Shown here piece after piece: positions 10,519 to 64,000 of a stretch of 64,000 bases of DNA (positions are counted from its first letter, which is position 1; each line of letters begins with the position of its first letter). The translations under genes and the position numbers were made by a program. The DNA comes from Gammaproteobacteria bacterium (GTDB lineage Bacteria; Pseudomonadota; Gammaproteobacteria; Steroidobacterales; Foliamicaceae), in NCBI GenBank assembly GCA_965116895.1, contig OZ220729.1, forward strand, positions 1,882,122-1,946,121, given 5' to 3'. The notes beneath the pieces were generated by a model. The model did not search any database and had not been told where the DNA came from. It saw only the letters and a program-made list of their open reading frames with translations.

Positions 10519-10544
10519 GTGTATTGCCGGCAGAATCGCCCGGC

Positions 10545-11360
10545 ATGACCATCCGCCGCACGCTCGTTGAGACACCATCGGGCTTCGTCCACGTCCGGTC
10601 CGCCGGCTCCGGTTCTCCTATCCTGCTGCTGCACTGGACTCCCGCATCCAGCCGTCAATACGTCCCGGTGCTCGAGAAACTCGGCAATTCAGGATACGCC
10701 GGCTACGCACCGGACAACATGGGTTATGGCCAGTCCGACCCCCGCCCCGCTCCGTGGCTGGTAAAGGACTATGCCGACAACATCGCCGCGGTAATGGACG
10801 GGCTGGGGCTGGAGTCCGCAGCCGTGGTGGGCGGCCACGTGTCTTCCGAATTCGCGGTCGAACTCTCGCTTCGCCATCCCGCGCGCGTAACGCATCTCGT
10901 TCTCGACGGCTGCCCGGTCTGGGACCGCGCTTTTCGCGACGAGGTGCTCAGCGTGTCCCGGCAACCGGCGCCGGACTGGTCGGAGGACGGCGCCCACATC
11001 GCCTGGGTATGGGAGCGGTCGCTGTGGCTGCAGCGCATGTGGGATTCGAAATTCCAGCTGGACGACGCCGGCGCCGCCCTGCTCCGCAACGCGGTCATCG
11101 ACAGCATGCTGGCGCAGCAGATGGACGACGCCACCGAAGCGCTCAGGGAATACGAGATGGGGGACGCGCTAAAGACGGTCCGCGTTCCGACGCTTGCGCT
11201 CACGGCCGAGACGGATCCGTTGAACAACTGTCACGAGAAGGTGCTGGAGTTGGTTGAGGGCTCGGTGGGCCACACTTTCGAGGGTGGTCATCCGCATCAC
11301 TATCCGGAAAAGGCGGGCGAGTACGTGGGCGTTATCCTGGAGTTTCTTCGTCGGGCGTGA
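10545..11360 (+). CDS. Alpha/beta-hydrolase-fold protein with atypical nucleophile elbow (GGHVS)
   Basis: ATG at 10545; the track start 10524 is a TTG. Fold motifs: LLLHWTP (oxyanion region), APDNMGYGQSD, elbow VVGGHVSSEF, C-terminal GGHPH. Homologous to the product of 50345..51298. Confidence 0.65.
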   Translation: MTIRRTLVETPSGFVHVRSAGSGSPILLLHWTPASSRQYVPVLEKLGNSGYAGYAPDNMGYGQSDPRPAPWLVKDYADNIAAVMDGLGLESAAVVGGHVSSEFAVELSLRHPARVTHLVLDGCPVWDRAFRDEVLSVSRQPAPDWSEDGAHIAWVWERSLWLQRMWDSKFQLDDAGAALLRNAVIDSMLAQQMDDATEALREYEMGDALKTVRVPTLALTAETDPLNNCHEKVLELVEGSVGHTFEGGHPHHYPEKAGEYVGVILEFLRRA

Positions 11361-44504: not shown

Positions 44505-44647
44505 TACGGCAGTCCTCCCTTGCCCGGAATCATACTACGCGGCCGTTTTGTGCGGCCACGTCGTTGAACTTCAGCGATGGCGCGCGGAATTCCGTTTAGA
44601 CTTAGCGCCCCGCCGGTCGGAGAGACCGGGAAACTGAGGGGTACTTG

Positions 44648-45658
44648 GTGAGCGAGGAAATCATTGCGCCGGACGGATCGCCCTTGCGGGCCGCCGTTAT
44701 CGGCTGCCGCGACGTCGAAAAGTCACTGGCCTTCTACCGGGACCGCATCGGCCTGTCGGTGCTTGCCGACGAGGTCCTGGGCGGCCCGGCCTTTCGCAGC
44801 TTCTGGAACCTGAACGGCGGAGCCTCCGCCCGAGCCGTCCTGCTGGGGCAAGGCGACGAGGGGGTCGGGCAGGTCCTTCTGCTCGACTTTCATCTGCCCG
44901 AAGGCAGCGCCAGTCCCGTGGAAATCCGCGATCGCAGCATTGTCCGGGCCTATGGATGCTTCAATCTCAATTTCTATACTGCCGACATTCACCGCGATTT
45001 CGAGGGCTTGAAGAAAGACGGCTACGTCCTCTGGTCCGATCCCGTCCAGCACTTTTTCGGGGACGACGTGGGCGATCCCATAGAAGGCATTTTCGAAGGT
45101 CCCGACCGCGTGCCGATCAACCTGGTGGAACTCGCCACCCGCGACACGGCGACGCGCGTGGGCCAGATGCGCGCCTACGTCGAGCAGCGCGGCTATACCG
45201 ATGCCGGCTTCACGCCCATCGTGACCAGTTCGCATGGCGTGGATTCGAGCGAACGCGCGATGGCCTTTTACGAACAGGTCCTGAACATGAAGCCGCTGAT
45301 CGACGAGGTCCTGGGCACGCCGGAGTCCAACCGCCTGCTGAACCTGCCCGAGGACGCGAAGACCCGCGTCGTGTTCATGCAGGGCAACCACATGTTCGGC
45401 AAGGTGGTGCTGAGCCAGCCGCTGAATTACGAGTGCGAGTCCCTGATCGAGCGGGCCAAACCCCCGAACGTCGGTTACCTGGCACAAACCTTCGCGGTCG
45501 GCGACCTGGAGGAGGCGGCCGGCAGGTGCAGCGCGCTGAAAGCGGAGGTCCTGAGCAAGCCCCAGGAAACTCCATGGCCCGGTTCGGGCAGCGTTTCCGC
45601 GATGCTGGTGCGGAACCCCGGCAGCGGAGCGCTGCAGATATTGATGGAGGATGCGTAA
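44648..45658 (+). CDS. Two-domain VOC (glyoxalase/bleomycin-resistance/extradiol-dioxygenase) family protein 1
   Basis: GTG 44648 lies 6 nt after GAGGGG; TTG 44645 is also possible. Repeated beta-alpha-beta-beta-beta modules (LRAAVIGCRDVEKSLAFYRDRIGL.. and IVTSSHGVDSSERAMAFYEQVLNM..). Confidence 0.65.
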   Translation: MSEEIIAPDGSPLRAAVIGCRDVEKSLAFYRDRIGLSVLADEVLGGPAFRSFWNLNGGASARAVLLGQGDEGVGQVLLLDFHLPEGSASPVEIRDRSIVRAYGCFNLNFYTADIHRDFEGLKKDGYVLWSDPVQHFFGDDVGDPIEGIFEGPDRVPINLVELATRDTATRVGQMRAYVEQRGYTDAGFTPIVTSSHGVDSSERAMAFYEQVLNMKPLIDEVLGTPESNRLLNLPEDAKTRVVFMQGNHMFGKVVLSQPLNYECESLIERAKPPNVGYLAQTFAVGDLEEAAGRCSALKAEVLSKPQETPWPGSGSVSAMLVRNPGSGALQILMEDA

Positions 45659-46614
45659 TGAGCGTTTACGGCATGACTTCGGTGACCGTCGGCGTAAGCG
45701 ACATCGATGAGTCGCTGGGACTCTTTCGCGACGTGATTGGACTGCAGGTGGAGAGCGACGGCGAGGCGCCGCGCGCGCTCCTCGATGCCTGGGGCCTGCC
45801 GCAGCACGTAACGGCGCGGCTGGTCGAACTGTCCTGCCGCGGCTATCCCGCCGGGCATCTGCGCCTGGCGCAGTATTCGCCCGCCGTGACCGAGGCCGTG
45901 CGGCTGGATCATGGAGCTGGCGCGGTCGATGGTTCCACCGACATCGGCCCCAAGGCGATCGATTTCTATGTTCCGACGCCAATGAGCGCCGCCGTCGAAG
46001 CGATCACCGGTGCCGGATACACTTTCCGCTCCGAGCCGATCCGCTACGAATTGGGCGATATCGAAAGCGAGGAGTGCCTGTTTACGGGGCCCGACGGCGT
46101 GCCCGCCCTGCTGATGATCGGCCATAGACACCCGCCGGAGGCGATGCGCGCCCTGCCGGCCGGCGTCCGTTTTTCCGAAATCGCCACGACGTCCGTCATA
46201 TGCGCGGATCCCGAAGCGGCGCGTGCGTTGTATTGCGACGCACTGGGACTGGAATCCGGTACCGACGCCTGGGTGGCGGAAGAAAACCTGGATCTGGCAC
46301 GCCGCCTCACCGGCGTCCCGAGCTGCACGGGCATGTATTTCCTGCTGGTCCGCGCACCGGGCGAGCCCAGCGGCAAGCTCCTGTTCGTGCATTTCGCCGG
46401 CGTCCCGAGCAAGCGGCTCACCGGGAGAATGCGACCCGGAAAGCTGGGCGTGAACCTCTTCAGTTACAGGGCAAGCGACCTGGACGCCACGCTGGCGAAG
46501 GCCTGCGAATCCGGCGGAACTCTCCTGCGCGGGCCAACGCAAGTGGGCGGAACGCGCGTGGCGCTGCTGCTGGGCGCCAACGAGGAATTGCTGGAGCTGA
46601 CCGAAGGGGACTGA
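45658..46614 (+). CDS. Two-domain VOC family protein 2
   Basis: ATG at 45658 overlapping the previous TAA (TAATG). MTSVTVGVSDIDESLGLFRDVIGL.. and a second module IATTSVICADPEAARALYCDALGL... The track ORF 44956..46614 is an out-of-gene extension. Confidence 0.65.
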   Translation: MSVYGMTSVTVGVSDIDESLGLFRDVIGLQVESDGEAPRALLDAWGLPQHVTARLVELSCRGYPAGHLRLAQYSPAVTEAVRLDHGAGAVDGSTDIGPKAIDFYVPTPMSAAVEAITGAGYTFRSEPIRYELGDIESEECLFTGPDGVPALLMIGHRHPPEAMRALPAGVRFSEIATTSVICADPEAARALYCDALGLESGTDAWVAEENLDLARRLTGVPSCTGMYFLLVRAPGEPSGKLLFVHFAGVPSKRLTGRMRPGKLGVNLFSYRASDLDATLAKACESGGTLLRGPTQVGGTRVALLLGANEELLELTEGD

Positions 46615-46615
46615 G

Positions 46616-47464
46616 TTGTCGACGGAAACCCGCCGGGGCGGTCCGGTCGATCTGCGCCGGCTGGAGTCCGAGGCAATACTCATCCTGCGCAAAGCGGTCG
46701 AGGCGTTTCGCCGGCCGGTGCTGCTGTTCTCGGCCGGCAAGGACTCGGCGGTGATGTTGCGCCTCGCCCAGAAGGCATTCGCGCCTTCGCTGCCTCCGTT
46801 TCCTCTGCTGCATGTGGACACGAACTGGAAGTTCCCGGAGGCCTATGAGTACCGGGACCGGACCGCGAACGAAGCGGGCATGAAGCTGATCGTCCACGTC
46901 AACCGGGAAGGACTTGCGCGCGGAATCGGGCCGTTCAGCCACGGCGCGGAGACCCATGTCCGTGTCATGAAGAGCGAGGCTCTGCAAGAGGCCCTGGAGC
47001 GCTACGGTTTTGACGTCATGATCGACGGGGCGCGGGGCGACGAGGAGCGATTCAGAGGCGACTCGCGACGCTCCGACACGCCCTCCGGCGGCGGCGGGGC
47101 GGCGCGCGCGTTCCCGCTGCGCAACTGGACCGAGCTTGATGTGTGGCGCTACGTTCAGGCGGAAGACATCCCGCTGCCGACGCTCTACTTTGCCGCGCCG
47201 CGGCTGGTGGTGCGGCGGGACGGACTGCTGATCGTCAGGGCCGACGAGCGAATGACGCTGGCGAACGACGAGAAGGCCACGATGCGCACGGTGCGGTTCC
47301 GCACGCTGGGGTGCTGGCCGCTGACGGGCGCCGTGGAATCGGATGCGGCGGACGTTGCAGGCGTTCTGCGCGAACTTCGCCGCGCCCGGACTCCCGAGCG
47401 GTCGTGGCGCGCCATCGACCGGCCGGCCGCCGAAGCGGCCGGAAAGCGGGAGCCGCGCCCTTGA
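46616..47464 (+). CDS. CysD-like PP-loop ATP pyrophosphatase (sulfate adenylyltransferase subunit 2 homolog) lacking an internal conserved segment
   Basis: TTG start after GAAGGGGA. PP-loop LLFSAGKDSAVML, PFPLLHVDTNWKF, VRFRTLGCWPLTGAVES. The region between GARGDEE and FPLRNWTE is about 20 residues shorter than canonical CysD (comparison from memory). Confidence 0.7.
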   Translation: MSTETRRGGPVDLRRLESEAILILRKAVEAFRRPVLLFSAGKDSAVMLRLAQKAFAPSLPPFPLLHVDTNWKFPEAYEYRDRTANEAGMKLIVHVNREGLARGIGPFSHGAETHVRVMKSEALQEALERYGFDVMIDGARGDEERFRGDSRRSDTPSGGGGAARAFPLRNWTELDVWRYVQAEDIPLPTLYFAAPRLVVRRDGLLIVRADERMTLANDEKATMRTVRFRTLGCWPLTGAVESDAADVAGVLRELRRARTPERSWRAIDRPAAEAAGKREPRP

Positions 47465-48048
47465 ACGCGCGAGACCCAGGCCCTGCCCCCGCCGGGAGGG
47501 GAAGGCGTCTGCACGAAGCCCGAAAGCCCTGCATTCTCTGGTTGACCGGCTTGCCCGCCGCGGGAAAGACGACCCTCGCCCGGGAAATCGCCCGCAGGCT
47601 TGAAACGCTTAGCGTCCGCGCCTTCGTGCTGGACGGCGACGACCTCCGCCTGGGTCTCAACAGCGACCTCGGGTTCAGCCGCGCGGCCCGCGACGAGAGC
47701 GTTCGCCGAGCCGGCCACGCCGCCAAACTCCTTCTCGACGCCGGAACGATCGCGGTGGCTGCCCTGATCTCGCCCTTCCGCGACCACCGCCAGCGGATCC
47801 GCGAACTGGCCGGCCCCGACCGGTTCGTGGAGATCTTCGTCGACGCGCCGCTTCATGTGTGCGAACGGCGCGATCCGAAGGGGCTTTACGCCAGCGCGCG
47901 GGCCGGCGATATCCAGGACGTCACCGGCATCGATTCACCCTACGAACCGCCTGAAAATCCGGATATCCGGCTGCGGTCTGCGGAAAGCCCACCGGACGAA
48001 CTGGCGGGCCAGGTGATCCGCTACCTTAAGGAAAGGGAATACATATAG
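47461..48048 (+). CDS. cysC: Adenylylsulfate (APS) kinase
   Basis: TTG at 47461 overlapping the previous stop (TTGA). P-loop LWLTGLPAAGKTTLA, LDGDDLRLGLNSDLGFS, ISPFRDHR, VCERRDPKGLY, GIDSPYEPPENPD. Confidence 0.85.
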   Translation: MNARDPGPAPAGRGRRLHEARKPCILWLTGLPAAGKTTLAREIARRLETLSVRAFVLDGDDLRLGLNSDLGFSRAARDESVRRAGHAAKLLLDAGTIAVAALISPFRDHRQRIRELAGPDRFVEIFVDAPLHVCERRDPKGLYASARAGDIQDVTGIDSPYEPPENPDIRLRSAESPPDELAGQVIRYLKEREYI

Positions 48049-48054
48049 AGCGCC

Positions 48055-48164
48055 GCGTCCTGGTTCGCCCCATGCCGCGGCGGAGCGTCGGCGGCAGGAG
48101 CCGCCGCCGAGCCCCAGGGATGGGTTCATGCGTCTCCGACGCGGCATGGGGCGAACCAGGACGC
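48055..48164. terminator. Perfect 25-bp inverted repeat with ~60-nt spacer (contains an inner GC hairpin); putative bidirectional terminator or REP-like element
   Basis: 48055-48079 gcgtcctggttcgccccatgccgcg is the exact reverse complement of 48140-48164. Inner hairpin cggcggc-agga-gccgccg. It sits between convergent cysC and TBDR-4 and touches the TBDR-4 stop codon. Confidence 0.5.
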
Positions 48165-50236
48165 TAGAAGCGTTTGCGTACCCGCAGCATGAAGTGCATT
48201 GCCTGCTCGGTCCTGCGCTCTTCCACCGCGGTAATGGCGCCGCCGGAACGGCCGTCTCCGTATAGGTCGCGGGTTCGCGTGCGGCGCGCAGGCGTAAAGT
48301 TCATGATCTCGAAACGAACGGAGAGGTCCTCACCGAAAGTCCGGTCCCACCAGATATTCATCGGCAGGGGGGCTTCCCGAATGAGCCGCTCCTCCGAAAT
48401 GCGATAGACGCGCTCCTGGAAACCGATGAATCCGTCAAGACCCAGCACTGAATTCCATCGCGGCAATTCCCAGGTGAGGCCGATGAACCCCACAAACGAA
48501 TCGCGGCCCGATCGCCGCCGTGTCTCCCCGGTAAATGGATCTGTGATCCGGGAATCGAAGTGCACGGTGCGCGACCGCCACGTCGCTCCTTTCCAACCCA
48601 ACGGGTCCAGGGGAAAATTCGTCACCAGTATCCACCTGCCGCGGGTCGCGTTGCCGGCGTTGCCCCGCGCGTCGAAACCCAGGCCGACCGGAACGAAATC
48701 CAGCGCGCTGTCCAGCCGGTAACGGGTGTAGGTCAGGATGGCCGAGCCCCTTCCCCAGAACCTGCGTTCGAATTGCAGTTCGTACTCGGCTGATTCTTCC
48801 GGTTCCAGGTCGGCATTACCGGCGGCCAGAATGTCCCACTCCAGGTTCGGCGATGCGGCGAACGAGTAAAAATTGAGTTGCCCCACGACTTTCTCCACGC
48901 GCAGCCGGACATCGGTCACGCTGTTGATCGACCAGGTCGCCGTCAGGCGCGGCTTGAGGTAGTCGAAGTGCTTGACGAGATTGGCGTCGCCGCTTTGCGT
49001 GAGGGTGGATTTCTCGAACGCCAGGCCGGCTTCGAACGACAGGTTGGGCCGGACCCGGTAAATGGCCTTGGCGAACGCCTGATAGCGGTCTTCCGCTACC
49101 GTGACGTTGTCATTCGGCAGCTCGAGTGGGACGTCGCCCACGCTGACCTCGACGAGACTGTCCAGCTCGTTGAATGCGGCCTCGGCCCCGAACTCCAGGC
49201 TCAGGGGATCGGACAGGTCCCACCGGTATATTGCTCGCGCCGCGGTCTCGGTCCAGTCGAAATCGTCGTCCGCGAGGGTCTCCAGGGAACCGACTTGCAG
49301 ATACGAGTCGCTGCCCAGGGACTCCAGCCGGTGGAGCAATTTGGCGTTCAGGCGCCGATTCCCGGCCAGGTTGATCGCGACGTCCGAACCCACCTCGAAT
49401 ACGTCGTTCCCCCGCTCGATGTCCACGAGCTGATCGTACGGCTCGCCGCCCGCAGTCCGGTACTCGCCGAGCCGGTCAAGAAGCAGCGTCGACGTCTTGG
49501 CCGTAAGGTTCAGCCCCAAATCGAAACGGTCCCATGCGTAATTGCCGCTGGCCGTGGCGTGCACACTCCTGGTCCAGTCGTCAATATCGAACCGGCCGGT
49601 CAGCGAGGACTGGGGATCCACGGCCGTAAGGGTGTACGGTCCCTCTCCCGTTCCCCATTCGAATTGTTCGTTCTCGTAGACAAGGCTCGCATCGAAATTG
49701 AAGCGCCCCGAACTCCTTGAGTACTCGGCACGCGCGGTTCCGCCGAAGTCACGGTCATTGTCGGTGTACTTCTTGAATGCCGCTTCGGTGATCAGCGTCG
49801 ATTTGCCGCCCGCCTTGCGAACGACGTTGACGACGACCTGGCGGCCCATCGTGTCGAAGTCCGCGACGTCCGCGCGTATCACTTCCACCTGCTCGATGAC
49901 CGCAAAAGGAATGGCGGTGAGCACCTCCTGCAGGGTGTTGGCCTTTATGGTCGGCCAGCGGCCGTCGATGAGCACGTTTCCGGCGGCGCTCTCAAGGCCG
50001 CGCATGTCGTTGTTTCCGCGCTCGAAGATGAATCCCGGCGTGCGGTTGATCACGTCCATTGCGCTGACCGGTTCGCCGTCCGCGTAGAAAGCCGCCGGGA
50101 AGACCGTGATGCCGGTGTTCTCCGCAGCGGCCGGCCGCTCCTGTGCAAGGCACGCAATGGCGAGCGCCGCCTGCGCGAAGACAATCCCGGCAACCCGCGC
50201 GATGTGACCAATGCCCTGTTTCACGACCACTACCAT
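48164..50236 (-). CDS. TonB-dependent receptor (TBDR-4)
   Basis: Only the last 690 codons of track ORF 48164..51370 are credible. ATG 50236, signal peptide ARVAGIVFAQAALAIACLAQE, plug (MDVINRTPGFIFERGNNDMRGLESAAGNVLIDG), barrel ending ..MLRVRKRF. Confidence 0.75.
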   Translation of the reverse strand: MVVVVKQGIGHIARVAGIVFAQAALAIACLAQERPAAAENTGITVFPAAFYADGEPVSAMDVINRTPGFIFERGNNDMRGLESAAGNVLIDGRWPTIKANTLQEVLTAIPFAVIEQVEVIRADVADFDTMGRQVVVNVVRKAGGKSTLITEAAFKKYTDNDRDFGGTARAEYSRSSGRFNFDASLVYENEQFEWGTGEGPYTLTAVDPQSSLTGRFDIDDWTRSVHATASGNYAWDRFDLGLNLTAKTSTLLLDRLGEYRTAGGEPYDQLVDIERGNDVFEVGSDVAINLAGNRRLNAKLLHRLESLGSDSYLQVGSLETLADDDFDWTETAARAIYRWDLSDPLSLEFGAEAAFNELDSLVEVSVGDVPLELPNDNVTVAEDRYQAFAKAIYRVRPNLSFEAGLAFEKSTLTQSGDANLVKHFDYLKPRLTATWSINSVTDVRLRVEKVVGQLNFYSFAASPNLEWDILAAGNADLEPEESAEYELQFERRFWGRGSAILTYTRYRLDSALDFVPVGLGFDARGNAGNATRGRWILVTNFPLDPLGWKGATWRSRTVHFDSRITDPFTGETRRRSGRDSFVGFIGLTWELPRWNSVLGLDGFIGFQERVYRISEERLIREAPLPMNIWWDRTFGEDLSVRFEIMNFTPARRTRTRDLYGDGRSGGAITAVEERRTEQAMHFMLRVRKRF

Positions 50237-50344
50237 ACTCGCTATATCGCCGGGCGGGAAATCATTTCCAGGACATCCGGCTGCCTGATAAGATTCGCCC
50301 GGTTGCGCCCGGAGGATTCCGAACGACGCGTCAGGGGGAATAGA

Positions 50345-51298
50345 GTGCGGGAAAACAAAATACGAATTCATCGGCGGCGGCTGGTCCAGACAATGCTGGC
50401 CGCACCGCTGGCATACGTCTGGGCGCGGACAGGCGCGGACCAGGCGTTTTCTGCATCCGAATCGGCGCCGTCGGCGGCCGCGCGACGGATCCGCCGGCGC
50501 TACGTGGACGGGCGCTTCGGCCAGGTGCATGTGCATATTGCCGAAGCCCTGGATGAAACCGCACGGCGCACGCCGTTGATGTGCTTTCATCCCACGGCCT
50601 TGTCGGGGGACTTCTATCGCGATTACATGCTGGCGATGAGTCTCGACCGGCGGGTCATGGCGATGGATACGCCGGGCTACGGCCGATCGGATCCGCCGCC
50701 TGAACCGCAGCCGATGAGCGAACTGGCCGGCGCCGCGGCCGACACGCTGGTCGCGCTCGGCTACGGGGCGGATGGCGAAGGCGCCGTGGACGTGATCGGC
50801 TACCACACGGGAACCTTCATCGCTGCGGAACTGGCCATTGTCCGGCCGGATCTGGTGCGCCGCCTGGTGCTGCCCGGCATCCCCTACCGCGTCGGCGAGG
50901 AGCGCGAGGCGCTGTACGAGCAGTACGCCCGGCCCAGTGAGCTCAAGGAAGACGGCTCGAACGCGATGGAAGTGTGGCGCTTCTGGGTGACCGACCGACA
51001 CCCGGATGTTTCGTTGCAACGCGGCGCTTCGCACTTTGTCGATCACCTGCAGTCGGGCCCCTACGCGTGGTGGGCGTATCACAGCGTGTTCAGCTACCCG
51101 GCCGAAGAACGTCTTCCTCTGGTGCGGCAGCCCGTTCTGGTGCCCAACACGCACGGCAATCTCAATGAACCGTCCCGCGAAGCCGCGAAGCTGCTGAATG
51201 ATGTGCGGGTGGTGGAAATGCCTGACCTGAGCCACGGCGCATTCGATGTCGGCGCGGACCGGCTGGCCGACGTTTCCCGCGAATTTCTGGATCAATGA
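50345..51298 (+). CDS. Alpha/beta-hydrolase-fold protein with atypical nucleophile elbow (GYHTG), possibly exported
   Basis: GTG 50345 after GGGGGA (alternative ATG 50393). N-terminal extension IHRRRLVQTMLAAPLAYVWA looks signal-like. Core is homologous to 10545..11360 (MDTPGYGRSDPPPEP; VIGYHTGTFIAAELAIVRPDLVRRLVLPG). Confidence 0.65.
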   Translation: MRENKIRIHRRRLVQTMLAAPLAYVWARTGADQAFSASESAPSAAARRIRRRYVDGRFGQVHVHIAEALDETARRTPLMCFHPTALSGDFYRDYMLAMSLDRRVMAMDTPGYGRSDPPPEPQPMSELAGAAADTLVALGYGADGEGAVDVIGYHTGTFIAAELAIVRPDLVRRLVLPGIPYRVGEEREALYEQYARPSELKEDGSNAMEVWRFWVTDRHPDVSLQRGASHFVDHLQSGPYAWWAYHSVFSYPAEERLPLVRQPVLVPNTHGNLNEPSREAAKLLNDVRVVEMPDLSHGAFDVGADRLADVSREFLDQ

Positions 51299-52116
51299 AC
51301 ATGAATTTTGAGCGAGTCGCAAAACTGGGCGCGGAGGTTTCGGGCGTTGAGCTGACGCCGGACCTTGCACAGGATGTCATCGACGAGATAGAACAAGGAA
51401 TACTGGAACACAGAGTTCTGTTTTTCCGGGACCAGGAACTGAACGGAGAAGAACTCGTCGACTTTTCCCGCCGCTTTGGCGAGAGCTTCGTCCAGCCGGC
51501 GCTGGCGCACAAGTACCAGGAACTGCTGTTTCTGGAGAACGACAAAAGCAAGCCGCCCACGCTCAACACCTTTCACCAGGACATGACCGGCCTGGCGCAA
51601 CCCCCGGCGCTGCACATGCTGCACGCGCTGATCGTGCCCGATGGGGGCGGCGACACCATGTGGGCCTGCAACTACAGCGCCTACGAATCCCTCTCGGACG
51701 AAATGAAGCGGATACTCGGCAGCCTGACGTGCACCCACACCATACTCGGGTACTACGAACCGATCGTAAGGAACTGGGAGAACGCCGAGGAGACGCTGAA
51801 GGAGTTCAGGGAGATATTCCCGCCGGTGTCGCATCCGCTGGTGAGGACCCACCCGCAAACCGGCCGCAAGTCACTGTTCGTCAACCGCTTCTTCACCAAT
51901 TTCATCAACGGTTTCACTCCCCAGGAAAGCGAAAACCTGCTTCAGTTCCTGTACAAGCACATCGAAACGCCCGAATTCTGCGTGCGGCTGCGCTGGCGTC
52001 CCGGCACCCTGGCGATCTGGGACAACCGCTGCACCTCCCACTACGCGCTGGCCGACTACTGGCCGCAGCACCGCAAGATGCAGCGCGCCTCGGTCTCGGG
52101 CGACACGCCCTTCTAG
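51295..52116 (+). CDS. Fe(II)/2-oxoglutarate dioxygenase, TauD/TfdA family
   Basis: ATG overlapping the previous stop (ATGA). HxD in TFHQDMTG, GGGDTMWA, distal His in RCTSHYA. 273 aa. Confidence 0.8.
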   Translation: MNMNFERVAKLGAEVSGVELTPDLAQDVIDEIEQGILEHRVLFFRDQELNGEELVDFSRRFGESFVQPALAHKYQELLFLENDKSKPPTLNTFHQDMTGLAQPPALHMLHALIVPDGGGDTMWACNYSAYESLSDEMKRILGSLTCTHTILGYYEPIVRNWENAEETLKEFREIFPPVSHPLVRTHPQTGRKSLFVNRFFTNFINGFTPQESENLLQFLYKHIETPEFCVRLRWRPGTLAIWDNRCTSHYALADYWPQHRKMQRASVSGDTPF

Positions 52117-53651
52117 CCCAATTCCTCGCGCAGGCCCTTGACGAGGCCGACGCACATGCACAGCAGCACAAGAGTAAAGGGCAGGCCCACCGAAAGCGTC
52201 AGCGCCTGCAGCGAGGCCATGCCGCCGCCCAGCATCAGCGCCATCGCGGCGAGGCCGGCCAGCAGGCACCAGAAGGCGCGTTGCTGAACCGGCGCGTCCA
52301 TCTTCCCGCCGGCCGTAATGGTGTCCACTACCAATGATCCCGAGTCGGCCGAGGTGACAAAGAAGATCGTGATCAGGAGCACGCTGACGGCCGAGACGAT
52401 TCCGGTCATCGGCAAAGGCTCCAGCATCTTGAACAAGGCCAGTTCGGGCACCGATTCCGCCACCCCGGTATAACCGCCGGAGAAGTACTGGTCCAGCGCG
52501 GCGCCGCCGAACGTCGCCATCCACAGGATTCCGATGATCGTCGGGACGATCAGCACCCAGGTGATGAATTCGCGCACGGTGCGCCCAAAACTGATGCGCG
52601 CGATGAACATGCCCACGAACGGCGCCCAGGCGACCCACCAGGCCCAGTAGAAGGTTGACCAGTCGCGCACGAAAGCCACGTCCTCGCGGCCGATCCAGTT
52701 GCTCAGTGCCGGCAGGTAATAGACATAATCGACGCCCGCGTTGGCGATCGTCGCGAGAATCACCAGCGTGGGTCCCGCGACCAGGACGAACAGCCACAAC
52801 AGGGCCGCAAGCACCATGTTGATCCAGCTCAGGCGCTTGACGCCCTTGTCCAGCCCGGCGATGACGGACGCCAACGCGATGCCGATGATGACCATGATCA
52901 GAACGGCCCTGGTGGCGACGGTCGCGGGAATCCCGAACAGGTATTGCAGTCCGCCGGCGATCTGTTCGGCGCCGAAGCCCAGCGACACCGCCAGCCCGAA
53001 CAGGGTCGCCAGCACCGCCACGATGTCCACGGCGTGACCGAAGGGCCCCCAGACCGACTTGCCGATCAGCGGGAAGAAACCGGAGCGCATCGTCAGCGGC
53101 ATGCCGCGATTGAAACAGAAGAATGCCAGCGACAGGCCCGCGACGGCGTATATGGCCCAGGCGTGCAGCCCCCAATGCAGGATCGCCGCGGACATGCCGA
53201 CGGCCCGCGCGGTCGCGGTGTCGGCGGGATCGACGCCGAGCGGCGGCGCCAGGGTGTGGGTCACGGGCTCAAGGACGCCGAAGAACATCAGGCCGATGCC
53301 CACACCCGCCGCGAACAGCATGGCCAGCCACGCGGAATAGCCGTACTGGGGCGCCGCGTCCCGTCCCCCGAGGCGAATCCGTCCCAACGGAGACAGCGCG
53401 AGGCCGAGGCAGAACAGGACGAAGAGGTTCGACGCGGCGAAGTAGAACCAGTCGAACGTCGTGGTCGTCCAGACCCTCAGATCAGCGAACAGCGTCGCCG
53501 CCTGCTGCCGGAACAGCAAGGTTCCGATCACCAGTATGACCACCAGCGCGGCGGAAACGATGAAGACCGGATTGTGGATGTCGAGCCCAAGGAAGCGGAT
53601 ATTCTGCTCGCCGATCTTGTGGCCGATATCGGGCGCCGCCTTGGAGTTCAT
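52113..53651 (-). CDS. BCCT-family (betaine/carnitine/choline) transporter
   Basis: ATG at 53651 (MNSKAAPDIGHKIGEQNIRFLGLDIHNPVF). BCCT-like core including the Trp-rich segment FYWAWWVAWAPFVGMFIARIS. The track extension to 53903 is not credible. Confidence 0.85.
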   Translation of the reverse strand: MNSKAAPDIGHKIGEQNIRFLGLDIHNPVFIVSAALVVILVIGTLLFRQQAATLFADLRVWTTTTFDWFYFAASNLFVLFCLGLALSPLGRIRLGGRDAAPQYGYSAWLAMLFAAGVGIGLMFFGVLEPVTHTLAPPLGVDPADTATARAVGMSAAILHWGLHAWAIYAVAGLSLAFFCFNRGMPLTMRSGFFPLIGKSVWGPFGHAVDIVAVLATLFGLAVSLGFGAEQIAGGLQYLFGIPATVATRAVLIMVIIGIALASVIAGLDKGVKRLSWINMVLAALLWLFVLVAGPTLVILATIANAGVDYVYYLPALSNWIGREDVAFVRDWSTFYWAWWVAWAPFVGMFIARISFGRTVREFITWVLIVPTIIGILWMATFGGAALDQYFSGGYTGVAESVPELALFKMLEPLPMTGIVSAVSVLLITIFFVTSADSGSLVVDTITAGGKMDAPVQQRAFWCLLAGLAAMALMLGGGMASLQALTLSVGLPFTLVLLCMCVGLVKGLREELG

Positions 53652-58442: not shown

Positions 58443-59984
58443 TTATCGCCCCATGGCAGCCCGGGACAGAAGGATCGGGAACCCGGACCGCACGCCAGCG
58501 TCGATCTCGTCGCTGACGTGGCGCGGCGCCGGATCGGCGAGGACTTCCCGCTTCTTTTCGGCAGCCCGATTCAGCAGCGCCGGCTTGCCTTTTTCTTCCC
58601 AGACGGTCGGGCTGTCCCGGTCGCTGAAGTCGGGGTATATGTACTCGCTTTGCATCACCTGCAGGGTACTCCCCGAACCCAGGTAATGCCCTTCGCCGCC
58701 GGCGCAGATCTGCTCGATCTCGGCGAAGCTCAGCGTCTCCGGGCTCACTTCGATCCCCCGTGTAACGCGCCCGACGGCGCCAAGAACGTCGTTGTCCAGC
58801 AAGAGGCTCTCCGGGCAGGTCCCCAGCAGGCTGGCGTACATGCCGGCGGATTCATAAACGATGTTCGCCCCGGACAAGGCGGCCGCCAGCACGGTTGCCG
58901 CGCGTTCCGCCCCGGCCTGAAAGTCGGGGAACTTGGCGTCGGTCATGCCGCAGGCGGTGCCGAAGGGAAGGTCGAAGTGGAGGCCGAGCTGGGCGCAGGC
59001 GGCGGACAGCAGACCTTGCTCGGGCGAGCCGCCGCTCATCGCCCCGGTGCGCAGATCCGAAACAAACGGCCAGGCGCCGAGAATCGCCGGCGCGCCGGGT
59101 TTGATCGCGTTGACATAGACCAGCCCACCGAGACACTCCGCCCAGGCTTGGGAAACCGCCCCGGCCAGATAGGCGGGGGTCGTTGCGCCGGCCTGCCCCG
59201 CCGACAGCAGCAGCACCGGCATGCCGCCCTCTACGGCCACGCGCAGGCACTCGAGGGCGTCGGTGGCGAACTTCATCGGCGGCACCACAAAACAGTTGGA
59301 CTGGCTGACGAAGGGACGCGCCCGCCACTCGGCCTCGCCGCCGGCGATCAGATGCAGCATCTCGAGGCTCTGCTCCACGTGCCCGGGCAGCGTCCAACTC
59401 GAACCGACGTGCTTGCTGGTGCCCATCACCGAGCAGTAGAGGGTATTGATGTCCATTTCGTAGTTGTCGCGAATGTCCCGGGGCACGCAGGTGCGCTGGA
59501 ACATGTGAATGTGCTCGCAGGTGTCGACGATACGCGCCATGTCGTACAGATCCTGCGCCAGCGAATCCCGGTAAAGGTTGTTTTCCGTGTCGGCCACCAT
59601 GACCGCGGCGCCGGCGGTGGAGAAGTGCACTCTGGCGCCGCTCAGATCGAGGTCTCTGCGCGGATCCTGCCCATGGAGCACCAGATTCCGCCGGGCCAGT
59701 TCGAGGGTTCGCTCGACCAGGCTTGGGGGCATGCGCAGGCGCCCGTCCTCGCCGAGCACGGCGCCGACCGCCGTGCAGGTCTCGATGCAGTGAGGCGTGG
59801 CGTCGGCGAATCCCACCCTGTCGAGAATCTCGAAGGCATTGTCCGCTATGGCCGTAACGCCGTCGGCGGACAAGGGCCGGTACTGTCCTCCGGCATGCCC
59901 CGGCCGAACCGGCTTGATCGCTTCGGCAAGCGGCGCGGCGCGCTCGGCCCTTCTGGCCCGTCTACCGCCCGATCGTCGAGGCAT
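58443..59984 (-). CDS. MttB-superfamily methyltransferase, non-pyrrolysine type (quaternary-amine:corrinoid methyltransferase-like)
   Basis: 513 aa uninterrupted ORF with no in-frame TAG. MttB-like TIM-barrel segments (FEILDRVGF, HFSTAGAAVMV, PVLLLSAGQAGATTPAYLAG, SGANIVYESAGM). Confidence 0.8.
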   Translation of the reverse strand: MPRRSGGRRARRAERAAPLAEAIKPVRPGHAGGQYRPLSADGVTAIADNAFEILDRVGFADATPHCIETCTAVGAVLGEDGRLRMPPSLVERTLELARRNLVLHGQDPRRDLDLSGARVHFSTAGAAVMVADTENNLYRDSLAQDLYDMARIVDTCEHIHMFQRTCVPRDIRDNYEMDINTLYCSVMGTSKHVGSSWTLPGHVEQSLEMLHLIAGGEAEWRARPFVSQSNCFVVPPMKFATDALECLRVAVEGGMPVLLLSAGQAGATTPAYLAGAVSQAWAECLGGLVYVNAIKPGAPAILGAWPFVSDLRTGAMSGGSPEQGLLSAACAQLGLHFDLPFGTACGMTDAKFPDFQAGAERAATVLAAALSGANIVYESAGMYASLLGTCPESLLLDNDVLGAVGRVTRGIEVSPETLSFAEIEQICAGGEGHYLGSGSTLQVMQSEYIYPDFSDRDSPTVWEEKGKPALLNRAAEKKREVLADPAPRHVSDEIDAGVRSGFPILLSRAAMGR

Positions 59985-60043
59985 GGCTGCTCTCCGTTAC
60001 ATGCGAGTTGAAAGACGCCGAAAGCATAGCTTGTTCCCGGGGG

Positions 60044-60943
60044 TCAGCCCCGACGGCGACGGCGGCCCCGACGGGCCCCGCGAGCCCCGGCCGGCGCACC
60101 GGGTTCGCGGTACTTGCCGATCCAGCGCGCGCAATCGGGATCCTTGCCCATCATGACATCGGCGCCGAGGACCGCCTGCACGACCTCGACGTGCAGCGGA
60201 TTGGTGATCGCCGAAGTCATGCCGGCGCCGATCGCCATGGTAAGGAATGCGCTGTTGATGCCGTTGCGATTCGGCAGGCCGAAACTCACATTGGACGCGC
60301 CGCAGGTGGTATTGACCTTCAGTTCCCCGCGCAACCGCCTGACCAGGTGCATGACCTGTTTGCCGGCGGCGTTGATCGCGCCGATCGGCATGACCAGAGG
60401 ATCGACCACGACATCGCTCGGGGAAATGCCGTGGTCCTGCGCCCGTTCGACGATTTTTCTGGCCACTTCGAAGCGCACGTCCGGATCCTCGGAAATGCCG
60501 GATTCATCGTTGGAGATGGCCACCACCGCGGCGCCGTGCCGGGCTACCAGCGGCAGCACAGTCTCCAGCCTGTCCTCTTCGCCCGTGACCGAGTTGACCA
60601 GCGCCTTGCCCCGATAGACCGCCAGTCCGGATTCCAGCGCGGCGACGATGGACGAATCGATAGACAGCGGCACATCGGTTACCGACTGCACCAGCCTGAT
60701 GGCCTCGGCCAGCATGGCGGGTTCGTCCGCCAGCGGGATTCCGGCGTTCACGTCCAGCATGTGGGCGCCCGCCTCAACCTGGGCGAGGGCGTCCGCGACC
60801 ACGCGATCGTAGTTGCCCGCCTTCATTTCCTCCGCAAGGATTTTCCGCCCGGTGGGGTTGATACGCTCGCCTATGATCACGAAGGGCCGGTCGAAACCGA
60901 TCACGACCTCCCGGCTGGCGGAGGCGACTACCGTGTCCGTCAT
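60044..60943 (-). CDS. Pterin-binding methyltransferase (methyltetrahydrofolate:corrinoid methyltransferase, MetH/AcsE/MtrH-like)
   Basis: FVIIGERINPTGRK, GAHMLDVNAG, PLSIDSS, ALVNSV, CGASNVSFGLP: the pterin-binding (DHPS-like) barrel signature. Confidence 0.8.
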   Translation of the reverse strand: MTDTVVASASREVVIGFDRPFVIIGERINPTGRKILAEEMKAGNYDRVVADALAQVEAGAHMLDVNAGIPLADEPAMLAEAIRLVQSVTDVPLSIDSSIVAALESGLAVYRGKALVNSVTGEEDRLETVLPLVARHGAAVVAISNDESGISEDPDVRFEVARKIVERAQDHGISPSDVVVDPLVMPIGAINAAGKQVMHLVRRLRGELKVNTTCGASNVSFGLPNRNGINSAFLTMAIGAGMTSAITNPLHVEVVQAVLGADVMMGKDPDCARWIGKYREPGAPAGARGARRGRRRRRG

Positions 60944-60958
60944 GCCTCGGCCACCGGC

Positions 60959-61279
60959 TTACGCATCCGGCGTCTCCTCCAGACCGTGATTGCGAATGAG
61001 CGCCAGCAGGCTCTCATCCGAGTATCGCGCTTCGATCCCGGCCGCAAGCCTTTCGGCGACCGCCTGCAGATCGTCCGCCGCGGCATCCGACCCGGGCCTG
61101 ATCGGTTCCCGCGCCCATTCGCTGAGATAGGCATCGGCGCTTTGCTTCTTCGCCCGCATGGCGGCGCGATCGATGGCGTTCTGGAAGCGCCCGCTCAACC
61201 GCGCCCTTGCGCGCAGCCTGCCCTTCCTGACAATCACCTGTGCGGGAATGTCGCGCCACTTCACCAGGACGGCGTTCAT
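60959..61279 (-). CDS. Small conserved protein often found in corrinoid-methyltransferase clusters (tentatively the family annotated 'virulence factor'); function unknown
   Basis: ATG 61279 (MNAVLVKWRDIPAQVIVRKG...) or ATG 61318. The family assignment is from memory of the WRDIPAQV-type N-terminus and is tentative. Confidence 0.45.
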   Translation of the reverse strand: MNAVLVKWRDIPAQVIVRKGRLRARARLSGRFQNAIDRAAMRAKKQSADAYLSEWAREPIRPGSDAAADDLQAVAERLAAGIEARYSDESLLALIRNHGLEETPDA

Positions 61280-61333
61280 GGCGTCAGCCCGCTTCCTCCC
61301 GGCGGACCCGAATCCCATTCGGAGCGACCCGCG

Positions 61334-62059
<726 letters not shown>

Positions 62060-62072
62060 GCCAACTACCTCC

Positions 62073-62107
62073 AACCACCGAACTTCAGCCTCGAAAGTTC
62101 AGTGGTT
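62073..62107. promoter_or_regulatory. Imperfect 13-bp inverted repeat in the divergent corrinoid-operon / DMGDH intergenic region (candidate operator or 5'-UTR hairpin)
   Basis: aaccacCgaactt (62073-62085) and aagttcAgtggtt (62095-62107) match at 12 of 13 positions, with a 9-nt spacer. It starts 14 nt upstream of the corrinoid-protein ATG. Confidence 0.3.
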
Positions 62108-62245
62108 CCAGGACGGGATCCCGGCCGATCCTGCGGCCCACGGCGGCATATTAGCAGTCATGAATCGACATCCGCAATGGAAAAACGCGACTATTGCAAG
62201 TGAGCGCCAACTTCCGTGAGAATCGCTTCAGGCCCGGAGGGCGCC

Positions 62246-64000
62246 ATGCAGAAACAGGCTCGAATTGTCATCGTCGGCGGCGGCATCATGGGCGTCGGCC
62301 TGCTGTATCACCTGGCGGCCGAGGGATGCGCCGACGTCCTGCTGATCGAGAAGGGCGAGTTGACTTCGGGCTCGACCTGGCACGCGGCCGGTCAATGCCC
62401 CAACCTGGTCGGCGACTACAACCTCGCCAAGATCCACGAATACAGCATTTCCCTGTACAGGAAACTGGAGCACCTGACCGGACAGTCGGTCACCTGGCAC
62501 GACTGCGGCAGCGTCCGCTTTGCCCTCACCGAGCAGGACCTGGACTGGTTCCGCTACCTGCGCGGGATCGCCGCGAATGTCGGTTACCACATGGAGATCG
62601 TGGACGTTGCAAAGATCGGCAAGCTGAATCCCTTTGTCTCGACCGAAGGCGTGCTGGCCGGCGCCTGGACCCGCAACGACGGCCATGCCGACCCGTTCGG
62701 GCTGACCCAGGCGATGGCGAAGGGAGCGCGCAGCCTCGGCGCCGGGATCGTGCGGCACAACCGGGTGATCGGGATTGAATCCATGCGCGGCGGAGAGTGG
62801 AAAGTGATGACCGAGCAGGGGCCGGTCATCGCCGAAACCGTTGTCAACGCAGCCGGCTGCTTCGCCCGGCAAGTGGCGGGGATGGTGGGAGCGGATCTTC
62901 CGATCTGCAACATCAAGCACCACTATCTCGTCTCCGGCCCGGTGCCGGAACTGGCCGGCAGAAGTGAAGAACTCCCCGTAACCCGCGACCCCTATGCCTC
63001 CGTCTACCTGCGCCAGGAGCAGGAGTCCGGCCTGATCGGCATCTACGAGTCCGAAGGGCTCAGCGAAGCCTGGCAGCCGGGCGGACTGCCGCCCTGGGAG
63101 TCCGACAGCGAGCTGTTCGAGGACGAACTCGAGCGCCTGATGCCCTGGCTGGAGCGGGCCATGGAGCGCATGCCGATCTTCGAACCGGCTGGCATCAAGC
63201 GGATCGTCAATGGCGCCATCTCCCACAGCCCCGACGGTCTGCCGCTGCTCGGCCCGGTGGCGGGCCTGAGCAATTTCTGGCTGTGCTGCGGCTCGTCGTT
63301 CGGCATTGCCCAGGGCGCCGGCTGCGGCAAGTACCTGGCCCAGTGGATGTTGCATGGCGATTCCGAAATCAACATGACCGGGTTCGATCCGCGGCGATTC
63401 GGAGTGTTTGCCGATGCCGGCTACATGAGCGCCAGGGGGCGCCAGGACTATGCCAGGACCTACGTCACTCCGCCTCCGGGGGAAGAACTGCCGGCGGCCC
63501 GCCGATGCCGGACCAGCCCCCTCTATGACAAGCTCAAGGCCCAGGGTTGTGTCTACACCGACACCTTCGGCTGGGAGCGGCCCAAGTGGTTCTCTCCCGA
63601 CGGCCGCGAGGAGCAATACAGCTTTCGACATAACAACGTGTTCGAGCTGGTGCGCGAAGAGTGCCTGGCCGTGCGCGAGCGGGTCGGCCTCCTGGACCTC
63701 TCCGGGTTCTCCAAGTACGACGTGACGGGTCCCGATGCCAGCACGATGCTGAATCGACTCTGCGCCAACCGTGTGCCGACAGCGGGCCGCATCGCGCTCA
63801 CCCACCTGCTGTCCGAGGGCGGGCGCATCGGCGCCGAAATGACCATCACCCGGCTGGACGACGAGACCTTCTACGTGCTTTCCGCCGCCGGCGCCGAACT
63901 GCGCGATCTCGACCACCTGACACAGGGCCGGCTCCCCACGGAGCAGACGCATGTGGCCAATGTCACCGACCGGCGGGGGGTCCTGGTGCTGGCCGGACCG
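62246..64000 (+). CDS. FAD-dependent dimethylglycine/sarcosine dehydrogenase-like protein with GcvT-type folate-binding domain (3' end outside the window)
   Basis: Not in the ORF track because it has no stop in the window. ATG 62246 is followed by 585 open codons to base 64000. MQKQARIVIVGGGIMGVGLLYHLA (dinucleotide fold), SGSTWHAAGQ (covalent-FAD His context of the DMGDH/SARDH family), and the later GcvT-like region (SPLYDKLKAQGCVYTDTFGWERPKWF, LLDLSGFSKYDV). Confidence 0.85.
   Translation, partial: MQKQARIVIVGGGIMGVGLLYHLAAEGCADVLLIEKGELTSGSTWHAAGQCPNLVGDYNLAKIHEYSISLYRKLEHLTGQSVTWHDCGSVRFALTEQDLDWFRYLRGIAANVGYHMEIVDVAKIGKLNPFVSTEGVLAGAWTRNDGHADPFGLTQAMAKGARSLGAGIVRHNRVIGIESMRGGEWKVMTEQGPVIAETVVNAAGCFARQVAGMVGADLPICNIKHHYLVSGPVPELAGRSEELPVTRDPYASVYLRQEQESGLIGIYESEGLSEAWQPGGLPPWESDSELFEDELERLMPWLERAMERMPIFEPAGIKRIVNGAISHSPDGLPLLGPVAGLSNFWLCCGSSFGIAQGAGCGKYLAQWMLHGDSEINMTGFDPRRFGVFADAGYMSARGRQDYARTYVTPPPGEELPAARRCRTSPLYDKLKAQGCVYTDTFGWERPKWFSPDGREEQYSFRHNNVFELVREECLAVRERVGLLDLSGFSKYDVTGPDASTMLNRLCANRVPTAGRIALTHLLSEGGRIGAEMTITRLDDETFYVLSAAGAELRDLDHLTQGRLPTEQTHVANVTDRRGVLVLAGP

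Follow-up and report, generated by a model that had tools for sequence, protein, structure and literature searches.

A histidine at the nucleophile elbow of an alpha/beta-hydrolase-fold protein encoded with a TauD-family dioxygenase in a gammaproteobacterial genome

We analyzed 64 kb of DNA from a Gammaproteobacteria bacterium (GenBank assembly GCA_965116895.1, contig OZ220729.1, positions 1,882,122 to 1,946,121). We refer to this entire stretch as the window, and all coordinates are positions within it. Our subject is a pair of adjacent genes: the first encodes an alpha/beta-hydrolase-fold protein (ABH2) that has a histidine at the nucleophile elbow, and the second encodes a TauD-family dioxygenase (the TauD-partner). 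The window also encodes a second histidine-elbow protein (ABH1), which lies in another cluster of receptor and dioxygenase genes (module 1; Table 1). The stop codon of ABH2 (TGA, 51296-51298) overlaps the start codon of the TauD-partner (ATG, 51295-51297) to give ATGA, and the pair is divergent from the gene for a TonB-dependent receptor (TBDR-4). An earlier reading of the DNA from its letters alone (the sequence-only reading) had described both arrangements, and both are seen in the sequence. A second in-frame ATG for the TauD-partner, at 51301, gives a protein of 271 amino acids, which is the length of its orthologues. The stop codons of the TauD-partner (TAG, 52114-52116, + strand) and of the BCCT-family transporter that converges on it (52113-52115, - strand) overlap by 2 nucleotides, and there is no terminator-like hairpin between these two genes.

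Table 1. Features in the window that are discussed in the text
Feature	Position	Strand	Remarks
TonB receptor of module 1	7238-9643		Upstream of ABH1
PhyH-family dioxygenase of module 1	9655-10518		Upstream of ABH1
ABH1, second histidine-elbow member	10524-11360	+	Elbow GGH105VS; downstream of PhyH-family dioxygenase and TonB receptor
S-adenosylmethionine (SAM) methyltransferase, 399 amino acids	43305-44504	-	First 170 residues without family assignment
Two paralogous two-domain VOC-fold proteins	44645-45658 and 45655-46614	+	Mutual identity 22%, E 9e-11
TonB-dependent receptor TBDR-4	48164-50236	-	Pfam Plug, TonB_dep_Rec_b-barrel, OMP_b-brl_3; divergent from the ABH2-TauD pair
Divergent intergenic spacer, 108 bp	50237-50344	+	Invariant blocks, Shine-Dalgarno-like GGGGGA, conserved GTG start
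ABH2, histidine-elbow alpha/beta-hydrolase-fold protein, 317 amino acids	50345-51298	+	GTG start, GGGGGA upstream; Pfam Abhydrolase_1
Putative twin-arginine (Tat) type signal, ABH2 residues 1-27	50345-50425	+	By motif; RRR is residues 10-12 (50372-50380)
Nucleophile elbow G152-Y-H154-T-G156	50798-50812	+	H154 is 50804-50806
H297, canonical triad His position	51233-51235	+	Aligns with catalytic His of Est1; family-variable
TauD-family Fe(II)/2-oxoglutarate dioxygenase (TauD-partner), 273 amino acids	51295-52116	+	Pfam TauD 7e-59; H94, D96, H249, R260, R264
BCCT-family transporter	52113-53651	-	Pfam BCCT 2e-166; convergent with TauD-partner

ABH2 matches Pfam Abhydrolase_1 (37.4 bits versus a cut-off of 25.8). 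Its AlphaFold model has a mean predicted local distance difference test score (pLDDT) of 89.3 and a predicted template modelling score (pTM) of 0.83; the model is confident from residue 46 and has the expected order of strands and helices. Foldseek matched the model to generic alpha/beta hydrolases only, at 15-21% identity, with a probability of 1.0 and template modelling (TM) scores of 0.60-0.70. In the model, H154 occupies the turn that joins strand 148-152 to helix 155-166, the classical nucleophile elbow. In single-sequence and profile alignments, H154 aligns with the aspartate nucleophile of the epoxide hydrolase 6unw (the best single-sequence match in the PDB) and with the serine nucleophiles of 4pw0, MCP hydrolase, Est1, and AidH. 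Thus, the elbow of ABH2 is GYH154TG instead of having the canonical Ser, Cys, or Asp. The sequence-only reading had placed a histidine at the nucleophile position, and this is borne out by the alignments to solved structures, by the family hidden Markov model (HMM), and by the AlphaFold models of both ABH2 and ABH1. To our knowledge, all characterized members of the alpha/beta-hydrolase fold use Ser, Cys, or Asp at the elbow. We searched the PDB by sequence, by profile, and by fold; in the alignments shown, every enzyme has Ser or Asp at the elbow, and no solved structure has His there. A full-text search of the literature found no description of an elbow-histidine replacement or of a GXHXG motif in the hydrolase fold, and nothing relevant on Foliamicus or on sponges in connection with TauD and BCCT genes.

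We collected 195 homologues of ABH2. In an alignment of 122 sequences (120 homologues and both of the window's proteins), the elbow column is His in 121, and G152 and G156 are each conserved in 121. The elbow His is near-invariant across 27-95% identity, and its conservation extends to the small residues that give the elbow its shape. By this conservation, the elbow histidine is a selected feature and not a chance substitution. Position 297 is His in ABH2 itself and in 70 of the 122 sequences; the others include Arg (15), Ala (7), Lys (6), and Gly (6). The canonical acid position is N272 in ABH2 and is N, S, D, or G across the family. The alignment shows that the ABH2 subfamily does not conserve the classical His/acid relay. 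Conserved positions near the putative active site include S87 (117/122), T155 (115/122), and the T84 position, which is T, S, or N; the oxyanion motif of ABH2 is F-H-P-T. The conserved residues of the lid are arginines (R218, R226, and R278) and tryptophans. We also considered a three-histidine metal site (H154/H270/H297), which would explain export by the Tat system, but rejected it as a feature of the family: H270 and H297 vary even among members that have signals. Such a site could still be present if it were confined to the close clade.

The sequence-only reading had also proposed that ABH2 is homologous to the protein at 10545-11360, which corresponds to ABH1 (open reading frame 10524-11360). 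All of the peptides that it quoted are present, and the comparison holds up by several methods. BLASTP aligns the two proteins at 31% identity over 165 amino acids (E 1e-11), and hhalign of the two subfamilies gives a probability of 100% and E 1.3e-42 over 266 columns, which include the N-terminal motif IRRxYVDxxxGQVHV and the lid motif EDGxH..W. On the HMM of the ABH2 family, ABH1 scores 110 bits versus 66 bits for the best solved canonical hydrolase, so the two proteins are more similar than random alpha/beta hydrolases would be; with this HMM (E ≤ 1e-3), ABH1 and ABH2 are the only alpha/beta-hydrolase open reading frames detected in the window. In the model of ABH1 (pLDDT 91), H105 lies between strand 99-104 and helix 106-117. 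The elbow is His in 82 of 91 ABH1 homologues, and the nine with Ser form a distant tail. Unlike the ABH2 subfamily, the ABH1 subfamily retains the acid (D231, 77/82) and the histidine (H256, 81/82), and it also has conserved H250 and H259. We conclude from these profile comparisons that ABH1 and ABH2 are specifically related members of one family. A Glu eight residues past the elbow was considered as a shared derived marker of the two proteins and was discarded, as the Ser enzymes Est1 and AidH have it too. A segmental duplication of module 1 was also rejected, as the sequence-only reading had anticipated: the oxygenase partners belong to different families (PhyH and TauD; BLASTP E 0.43).

This family is large. 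In a profile search of 1.84 billion cluster representatives (clustered at 50% identity), 1,513 clusters pass a threshold of E ≤ 1e-30, and 9,621 pass E ≤ 1e-10. Among the best 150 cluster representatives, which contain 185 domains, the elbow is His in 152 domains and Ser in 1, and GYHTG and GFHTG are the dominant forms. In the loci that we fetched, the elbow is His in 128 of about 142 informative domain matches. Among the carriers are uncultured marine Gamma- and Alphaproteobacteria, Woeseiaceae, sphingomonads, and actinomycetes; the cultured ones include Sphingorhabdus sp. EL138, Novosphingobium piscinae, and Sandaracinobacteroides saxicola. Multi-domain fusions, with two or three domains each, account for 36 of the best 150, and 19 of these are His/His. 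Of the 36 fused proteins, 34 keep His in at least one domain, and the other domain may degenerate. Fusions with a single His suggest obligate dimers with one active half. Histidine-elbow domains are also found in tandem arrays, the longest with four genes, and in two- or three-domain fusions of 540-740 amino acids (L061, L063, L064, and L003 of our collected loci; proteins P0211-P0225).

We define the GxHTG subfamily by the elbow G-x-H-[TS]-G, the motif I-R-R-x-Y-V-D-G-x-x-G-Q-x-H, and a lid with E-D-G and a conserved Trp. ABH2 has all of these and scores 464 bits on the family profile, so by sequence we assign it to a large uncharacterized subfamily of the alpha/beta-hydrolase fold with the signature GxHTG. 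The names on record for its homologues say nothing beyond "alpha/beta fold hydrolase" or "pimeloyl-ACP methyl ester carboxylesterase," and no NCBIfam model scores above its own cut-off for ABH2. BioH, which is the JGI name for many homologues, can be rejected: TIGR01738 gives 19.7 bits versus a cut-off of 206.95, and the elbow lacks Ser. ABH2 is not an epoxide hydrolase or a haloalkane dehalogenase either, as its elbow has His in place of Asp and its F-H-P-T differs from the HGxP-type motif; the NCBIfam dehalogenase models do not match ABH2, and ABH1 scores well under their cut-offs. Relatives with Ser at the elbow score 28-88 bits on the family HMM, and the top one has the elbow GNSTG. Some homologues have a weak match to the Pfam family Ndr. 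The best solved relatives of the family profile are Est1 (6eb3, 8v16) and AidH (4g5x), at 64-66 bits. They resemble ABH2 in having a helical lid, a D-x-x-G-x-G-x-S loop, and the Glu eight residues after the elbow, but they have Ser elbows (GvSmGG and GwSlGG) and a working Ser-His-Asp triad, where ABH2 has His, an Asn at the acid position, and a triad His that varies in the family. The epoxide hydrolases and haloalkane dehalogenases (6unw) share with ABH2 the fold, a non-serine elbow, and a similar H-x-x oxyanion motif after strand 3, but they have an Asp nucleophile and a conserved His-acid pair that hydrolyzes the ester intermediate. Overall, ABH2 fails the defining catalytic features of every characterized subfamily that we compared it to. 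A family of over 1,500 clusters with an invariant His at the elbow and an otherwise relaxed triad would be either a new catalytic solution in a well-studied fold or a large and conserved class of pseudoenzymes.

ABH2 also has an N-terminal extension, which the sequence-only reading had described as signal-like. Residues 1-27 are MRENKIRIH-RRR-LVQTMLAAPLAYVWA, where LVQTMLAAPLAYVWA is a hydrophobic stretch; these are followed by RTGA and by a variable and disordered linker to about residue 45. In the AlphaFold model, residues 10-27 form a helix of low confidence, and residues 28-45 are a disordered linker. The motif HRRRLVQ-TMLAAPLAYVWA-RTGA is conserved in the orthologues, with the pattern RRRL(L/V)Q, a hydrophobic stretch, and then VWA/RTGA. 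The consensus of 24 orthologues is KxxxxRRRLLQxxLAAPxAxxW, and ten loci keep both the GTG start codon and the reading frame across the RRR codons. More distant members of the family have textbook Tat signals (RRRFLGAS, RRQFVQG), Tat-lipoprotein signals (RRR...LLPAC), or Sec-type signals, and other members, of 266-290 amino acids, have no signal. From inspection of these motifs, we read the extension of ABH2 as a putative twin-arginine signal, which would make ABH2 a periplasmic protein.

The TauD-partner is similar to E. coli TauD (1gqw) over its full length (E 2.8e-62) and matches Pfam TauD (PF02668) at 200.3 bits versus a cut-off of 27. Like TauD (1gqw, 1os7), it has the H-x-D...H iron triad and the contacts for 2-oxoglutarate: H94, D96, H249, T121, and R260 correspond to H99, D101, H255, T126, and R266 of TauD. 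R264, which corresponds to the sulfonate-binding R270 of TauD, is also kept. In contrast, the substrate contacts are replaced. Relative to E. coli TauD, the substitutions are H70Q, Y73L, N95L, S158Y, and F159Y, and also W98F, F104G, H68F, and G205F. In TauD, H70, Y73, N95, S158, and F159 are the taurine contacts. A discrete subfamily (61 clusters, ≥53% identity) has these replacements as fixed features, with F or L at position 73; the next-closest TauD homologues (≤48% identity) retain H70, Y73, W98, and F104. On the NCBIfam model for taurine dioxygenase (NF007104), the TauD-partner scores 261.9 bits versus a cut-off of 313. This cut-off and the substrate-contact residues rule out an ordinary taurine dioxygenase, and by sequence the TauD-partner falls within the TauD/TfdA family but outside the taurine dioxygenases proper. 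Both "taurine dioxygenase" and the current names for ABH2-like proteins are likely wrong.

Because the replacements are hydrophobic or aromatic, the pocket of the TauD-partner is predicted to be more hydrophobic and aromatic than that of TauD, and it is probably roomier, while still being suited to an anionic sulfur group. If so, taurine would be a poorer fit than an alkyl or quaternary-ammonium sulfonate or sulfate ester. The TauD-partner is also similar to AtsK from Pseudomonas putida S-313 (1oih, E ~4e-43), although more weakly than to TauD; the arginine R264 is kept, and the equivalent of a histidine of AtsK is a Gln. That histidine is the sulfate-binding His of AtsK. AtsK cleaves sulfate esters oxidatively. 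The ats/sft cluster of AtsK also includes a TonB-dependent receptor, SftP, and a sulfotransferase. Unlike the TauD-partner, AtsK has no alpha/beta-hydrolase partner. The sequence-only reading had linked the TauD-family gene to sulfur through the sulfotransferase and activated-sulfate genes nearby. The part of this link that stands is the anion-binding arginine. The rest is weaker: the taurine contacts are lost, the sulfotransferase occurs patchily, and the cysD-like and adenosine-5'-phosphosulfate (APS) kinase genes are confined to this window and have a degenerate appearance. An exact-sequence look-up of the TauD-partner, with either start codon, returned no record, and a plasmid collection gave weak matches to the 3' end of the gene only, with no sign of a mobile element.

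To see how often the two genes occur together, we compared 80 loci from a scan with one genome per species. The nearest loci are from metagenome-assembled genomes (MAGs) of an uncultured Pseudohongiella sp., of "Candidatus Foliamicus," and of Gammaproteobacteria bins; from the names of the bins and "Ca. Foliamicus," we judge these MAGs to be of sponge type. At ≥73% identity of ABH2, a TauD-family gene directly follows ABH2 in all 18 distinct loci. The surroundings vary. TBDR-4 is upstream of ABH2 in most but not all of the close loci, and where the receptor is missing (L005, L008, and L020), the two VOC genes directly adjoin ABH2. Downstream of the pair there is either the group of BCCT, TPR-sulfotransferase, receptor, and MttB-family genes or else another histidine-elbow paralogue. 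This paralogue has no signal, has the elbow GFHSG, and is about 30% identical to ABH2; it is convergent right after the TauD gene in five genomes. (It lies at about 11.2-12.8 kb in L005, L008, L009, L012, and L017, and at about 16-18 kb, a few kb off, in L019 and L020.) BCCT is syntenic in 9 of the 18 close loci: it adjoins TauD in 6 and is about 3 kb downstream in L007 and L014. The SAM methyltransferase and the VOC pair travel with ABH2-TauD in nearly all of the close loci, and homologues of the methyltransferase, at up to 53% identity, recur beside distant histidine-elbow hydrolases. The sulfotransferase is syntenic in some of the close loci only.

Beyond the close loci, the order is inverted in a metagenomic locus (L091, 50% identity of the hydrolase), where the TauD gene directly precedes the hydrolase gene. 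This pair lies within a cassette of DUF1838, VOC, reductase, MFS, and CN-hydrolase genes. A cassette from Sphingorhabdus sp. EL138 (VOC, reductase, MFS, CN-hydrolase, and DUF1330) contains no TauD gene. The two (L002 8001-14684, from EL138, and L091 131-8936) share a set of genes, flanked by histidine-elbow hydrolases, that looks like an uncharacterized catabolic operon: a small VOC protein, an ADH_N_2 reductase, another small VOC protein, an MFS transporter, a hydrolase, DUF1330, and a CN-hydrolase, with DUF1838 in L091 only. More generally, the neighbors of distant members include TonB receptors, homologues of the methyltransferase, VOC proteins, KstD-like flavoproteins, Rieske oxygenases, SDRs, and transporters, and these neighborhoods look like catabolic islands. 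For the ABH1 type, an orthologous PhyH gene is within 3 kb in two other orders (in a Rhodospirillaceae MAG and in Sandaracinobacteroides saxicola).

The sequence-only reading had argued that the pairing of hydrolase and dioxygenase is under selection. This is right in that each hydrolase-oxygenase pairing is conserved in its own subfamily, but it is not a property of the whole family. We also noticed open reading frames for TauD that are truncated or split (L009 10838-11182, L017 11103-11627, and L091 7177-7993) and a 98-residue remnant of ABH2 with no TauD gene (L075 10001-10294). These cases suggest joint loss of the two genes in some lineages, or else errors in the assemblies.

We propose, tentatively and as something a little short of probable, that ABH2 is a periplasmic enzyme whose elbow histidine acts in processing an imported anionic metabolite of the host, and that the TauD-partner desulfonates the product in the cytoplasm. 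H154 would be the catalytic residue, at the N-terminus of helix C and facing the conserved oxyanion-hole positions T84 and T155. It would most likely be a general base that activates water or the substrate, in a one-residue arrangement like that of phospholipase A2; with such a base next to the oxyanion-hole positions, the distal His and acid would be dispensable. A role for H154 as a covalent nucleophile, with an N-acyl-, N-sulfo-, or N-phospho-histidine intermediate, seems less likely. Histidine nucleophiles are typical of phosphoryl and sulfuryl transfer. Histidine catalysts from unrelated folds include phospholipase A2, in which His activates water, and the histidine phosphatases, the HKD phosphodiesterases, and arylsulfate sulfotransferase, in which the His is covalently modified. 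These provide a mechanistic model for a His that acts with no Ser or Asp nucleophile, but there is no evidence for a phospho- or sulfo-histidine in ABH2. The substrate of ABH2 is probably anionic, because of the conserved arginines of the lid and the frequent Arg or Lys at position 297.

In the proposed route, ABH2 would be exported by Tat and would act in the periplasm on a compound that arrives through the neighboring TonB-dependent receptor. IroE and PfeE are periplasmic esterases of the alpha/beta-hydrolase fold that act on a compound imported by an adjacent TonB-dependent receptor. Unlike ABH2, they have a serine nucleophile and act on trilactone siderophores, and we saw no genes for siderophore synthesis or iron here. 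The small sulfonate or sulfate ester that is released would then cross the inner membrane, possibly via the adjacent BCCT carrier, and the TauD-partner would hydroxylate the carbon next to the sulfur group to give sulfite or sulfate and an aldehyde. Speculatively, the compound could belong to the quaternary-ammonium sulfonates or sulfate esters, for example N,N,N-trimethyltaurine, choline-O-sulfate, or a conjugate of one of these. We suggest this class because of the BCCT and MttB-family neighbors, the aromatic pocket predicted for the TauD-partner, the sponge-type relatives, and the presence of trimethyltaurine in sponges, from which it has been reported. The conserved locus, with its receptor, putatively exported enzyme, dioxygenase, BCCT carrier, and MttB-family gene, marks a probable route by which organosulfur or quaternary-amine compounds of the host are used. 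It is doubtful, in our view, that the full version of this idea is correct, in which GxHTG is a new catalytic class and ABH2 and TauD of sponge symbionts form a two-compartment route for stripping sulfur from quaternary-ammonium sulfonates or sulfate esters of the host.

Several observations count against the proposal. Trimethyltaurine, like other small zwitterions, would by itself require neither a TonB receptor nor a periplasmic enzyme. The Tat signal of ABH2 is putative, being assigned by motif, and a single pocket lined by H154, T84, and the lid arginines is a prediction. We also know of no characterized precedent for a histidine at the nucleophile elbow, so its role could be non-catalytic. 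ABH2 might then be a pseudoenzyme that binds or escorts the receptor-imported compound in the periplasm, or a structural partner, with the His used for binding. All three positions of the canonical triad are off the norm, in ABH2 or across the family, and the weak Ndr matches and the fusions with one degenerate domain are consistent with this; non-catalytic members of the fold, such as the neuroligins and NDRG, are well known. We still consider a pseudoenzyme unlikely, as a dead position is usually variable, yet the His and the glycines of the strained elbow are near-invariant, and the family is found in catabolic gene islands, often as tandem paralogues. BCCT carriers use no binding proteins, which also speaks against an escort. 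Another way to keep ABH2 as an enzyme would be to move the nucleophile to T84, S87, or T155, with H154 as the base of a relocated Ser/Thr-His dyad. All three residues lie next to H154 and are conserved, the family can do without the canonical His, and the relative with the Ser-containing elbow GNSTG reaches 88 bits on the family HMM. But S87 and the H-x-T positions are also conserved in ordinary members of the fold, where their roles are structural or in the oxyanion hole, and we think that an ordinary hydrolase of this kind is quite unlikely.

Other difficulties concern the pairing. There is no TauD or PhyH gene near the hydrolase in about 60 more distant loci of the genome scan (≤64% identity), and among the close loci, just about half have BCCT beside the pair. 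Members of the TauD subfamily occur in three other contexts with no histidine-elbow hydrolase alongside; in one of these, a canonical alpha/beta hydrolase with an MHDWG elbow is about 4 kb away. And because the close loci come from one bacterial order, the adjacency may be partly inheritance. In the extreme, the adjacency would be meaningless, with unrelated enzymes sharing a promoter by descent in one lineage. All 18 close loci are from related sponge-type Gammaproteobacteria, and both partners are found apart, with ABH2 homologues at 62-64% identity lacking TauD. However, the pair stays intact while its flanks are rearranged (with or without the receptor, and with BCCT or another hydrolase downstream), the inverted order recurs independently at 50% identity, a second histidine-elbow paralogue abuts TauD, the pair decays or is lost together, and the ABH1-PhyH link is a parallel case that spans three orders. 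It is therefore very unlikely that the adjacency has no meaning. The overlapping stop and start codons would also fit 1:1 synthesis of a complex, in which the Tat signal of ABH2 carries the signal-less, iron-loaded TauD-partner to the periplasm. Tat exports folded proteins with their cofactors, and a Tat signal on only one partner, as here, is the pattern of known hitchhiker pairs. Such export is hard to reconcile with the cytoplasmic 2-oxoglutarate and Fe(II) that TauD requires, or with the signal-less histidine-elbow paralogue beside TauD in other genomes and the solitary members of the TauD subfamily, and we consider it highly improbable. The periplasmic enzyme with a cytoplasmic dioxygenase is the reading that we prefer.

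In the spacer between TBDR-4 and ABH2, an alignment of 10 orthologous loci shows two invariant blocks, CTGATAAGATTCG (50285-50297) and GGATTCCG (50314-50321). The first block resembles an extended -10 element (TGnTAAGAT), which is how we tentatively read TGATAAGAT; alternatively, the block could be an operator. A scan of 50000-52400 for consensus promoters and terminators gave no usable site, and none in the spacer. The TBDR-4 protein begins with MVVVVKQ, followed by a signal-like stretch. The BCCT transporter scores below the cut-offs of the NCBIfam models for betaine and choline BCCT transporters. Near the BCCT gene, at 58443-59984 and 60008-63952, are an MttB-family methyltransferase of the non-pyrrolysine type and, beside it, two large open reading frames (731 and 574 amino acids) that have no match in Pfam or NCBIfam. 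For the VOC-fold neighbors, profile searches against the PDB gave generic glyoxalase-family matches only, with no conserved metal ligands.

The window's sulfotransferase is a TPR plus 3'-phosphoadenosine-5'-phosphosulfate (PAPS)-type enzyme, a point of difference from the AtsK cluster. Between the second VOC gene and the receptor (46616-48048) is a cysD-like open reading frame that scores below the CysD equivalog cut-off, with its match split by an insert rich in Gly and Arg. An APS-kinase domain comes next, and there is no CysN GTPase between the two. Among the loci that we compared, these genes are found in this window only. As the segment is absent from all of the orthologous loci, it may be a decaying or recently acquired fragment.

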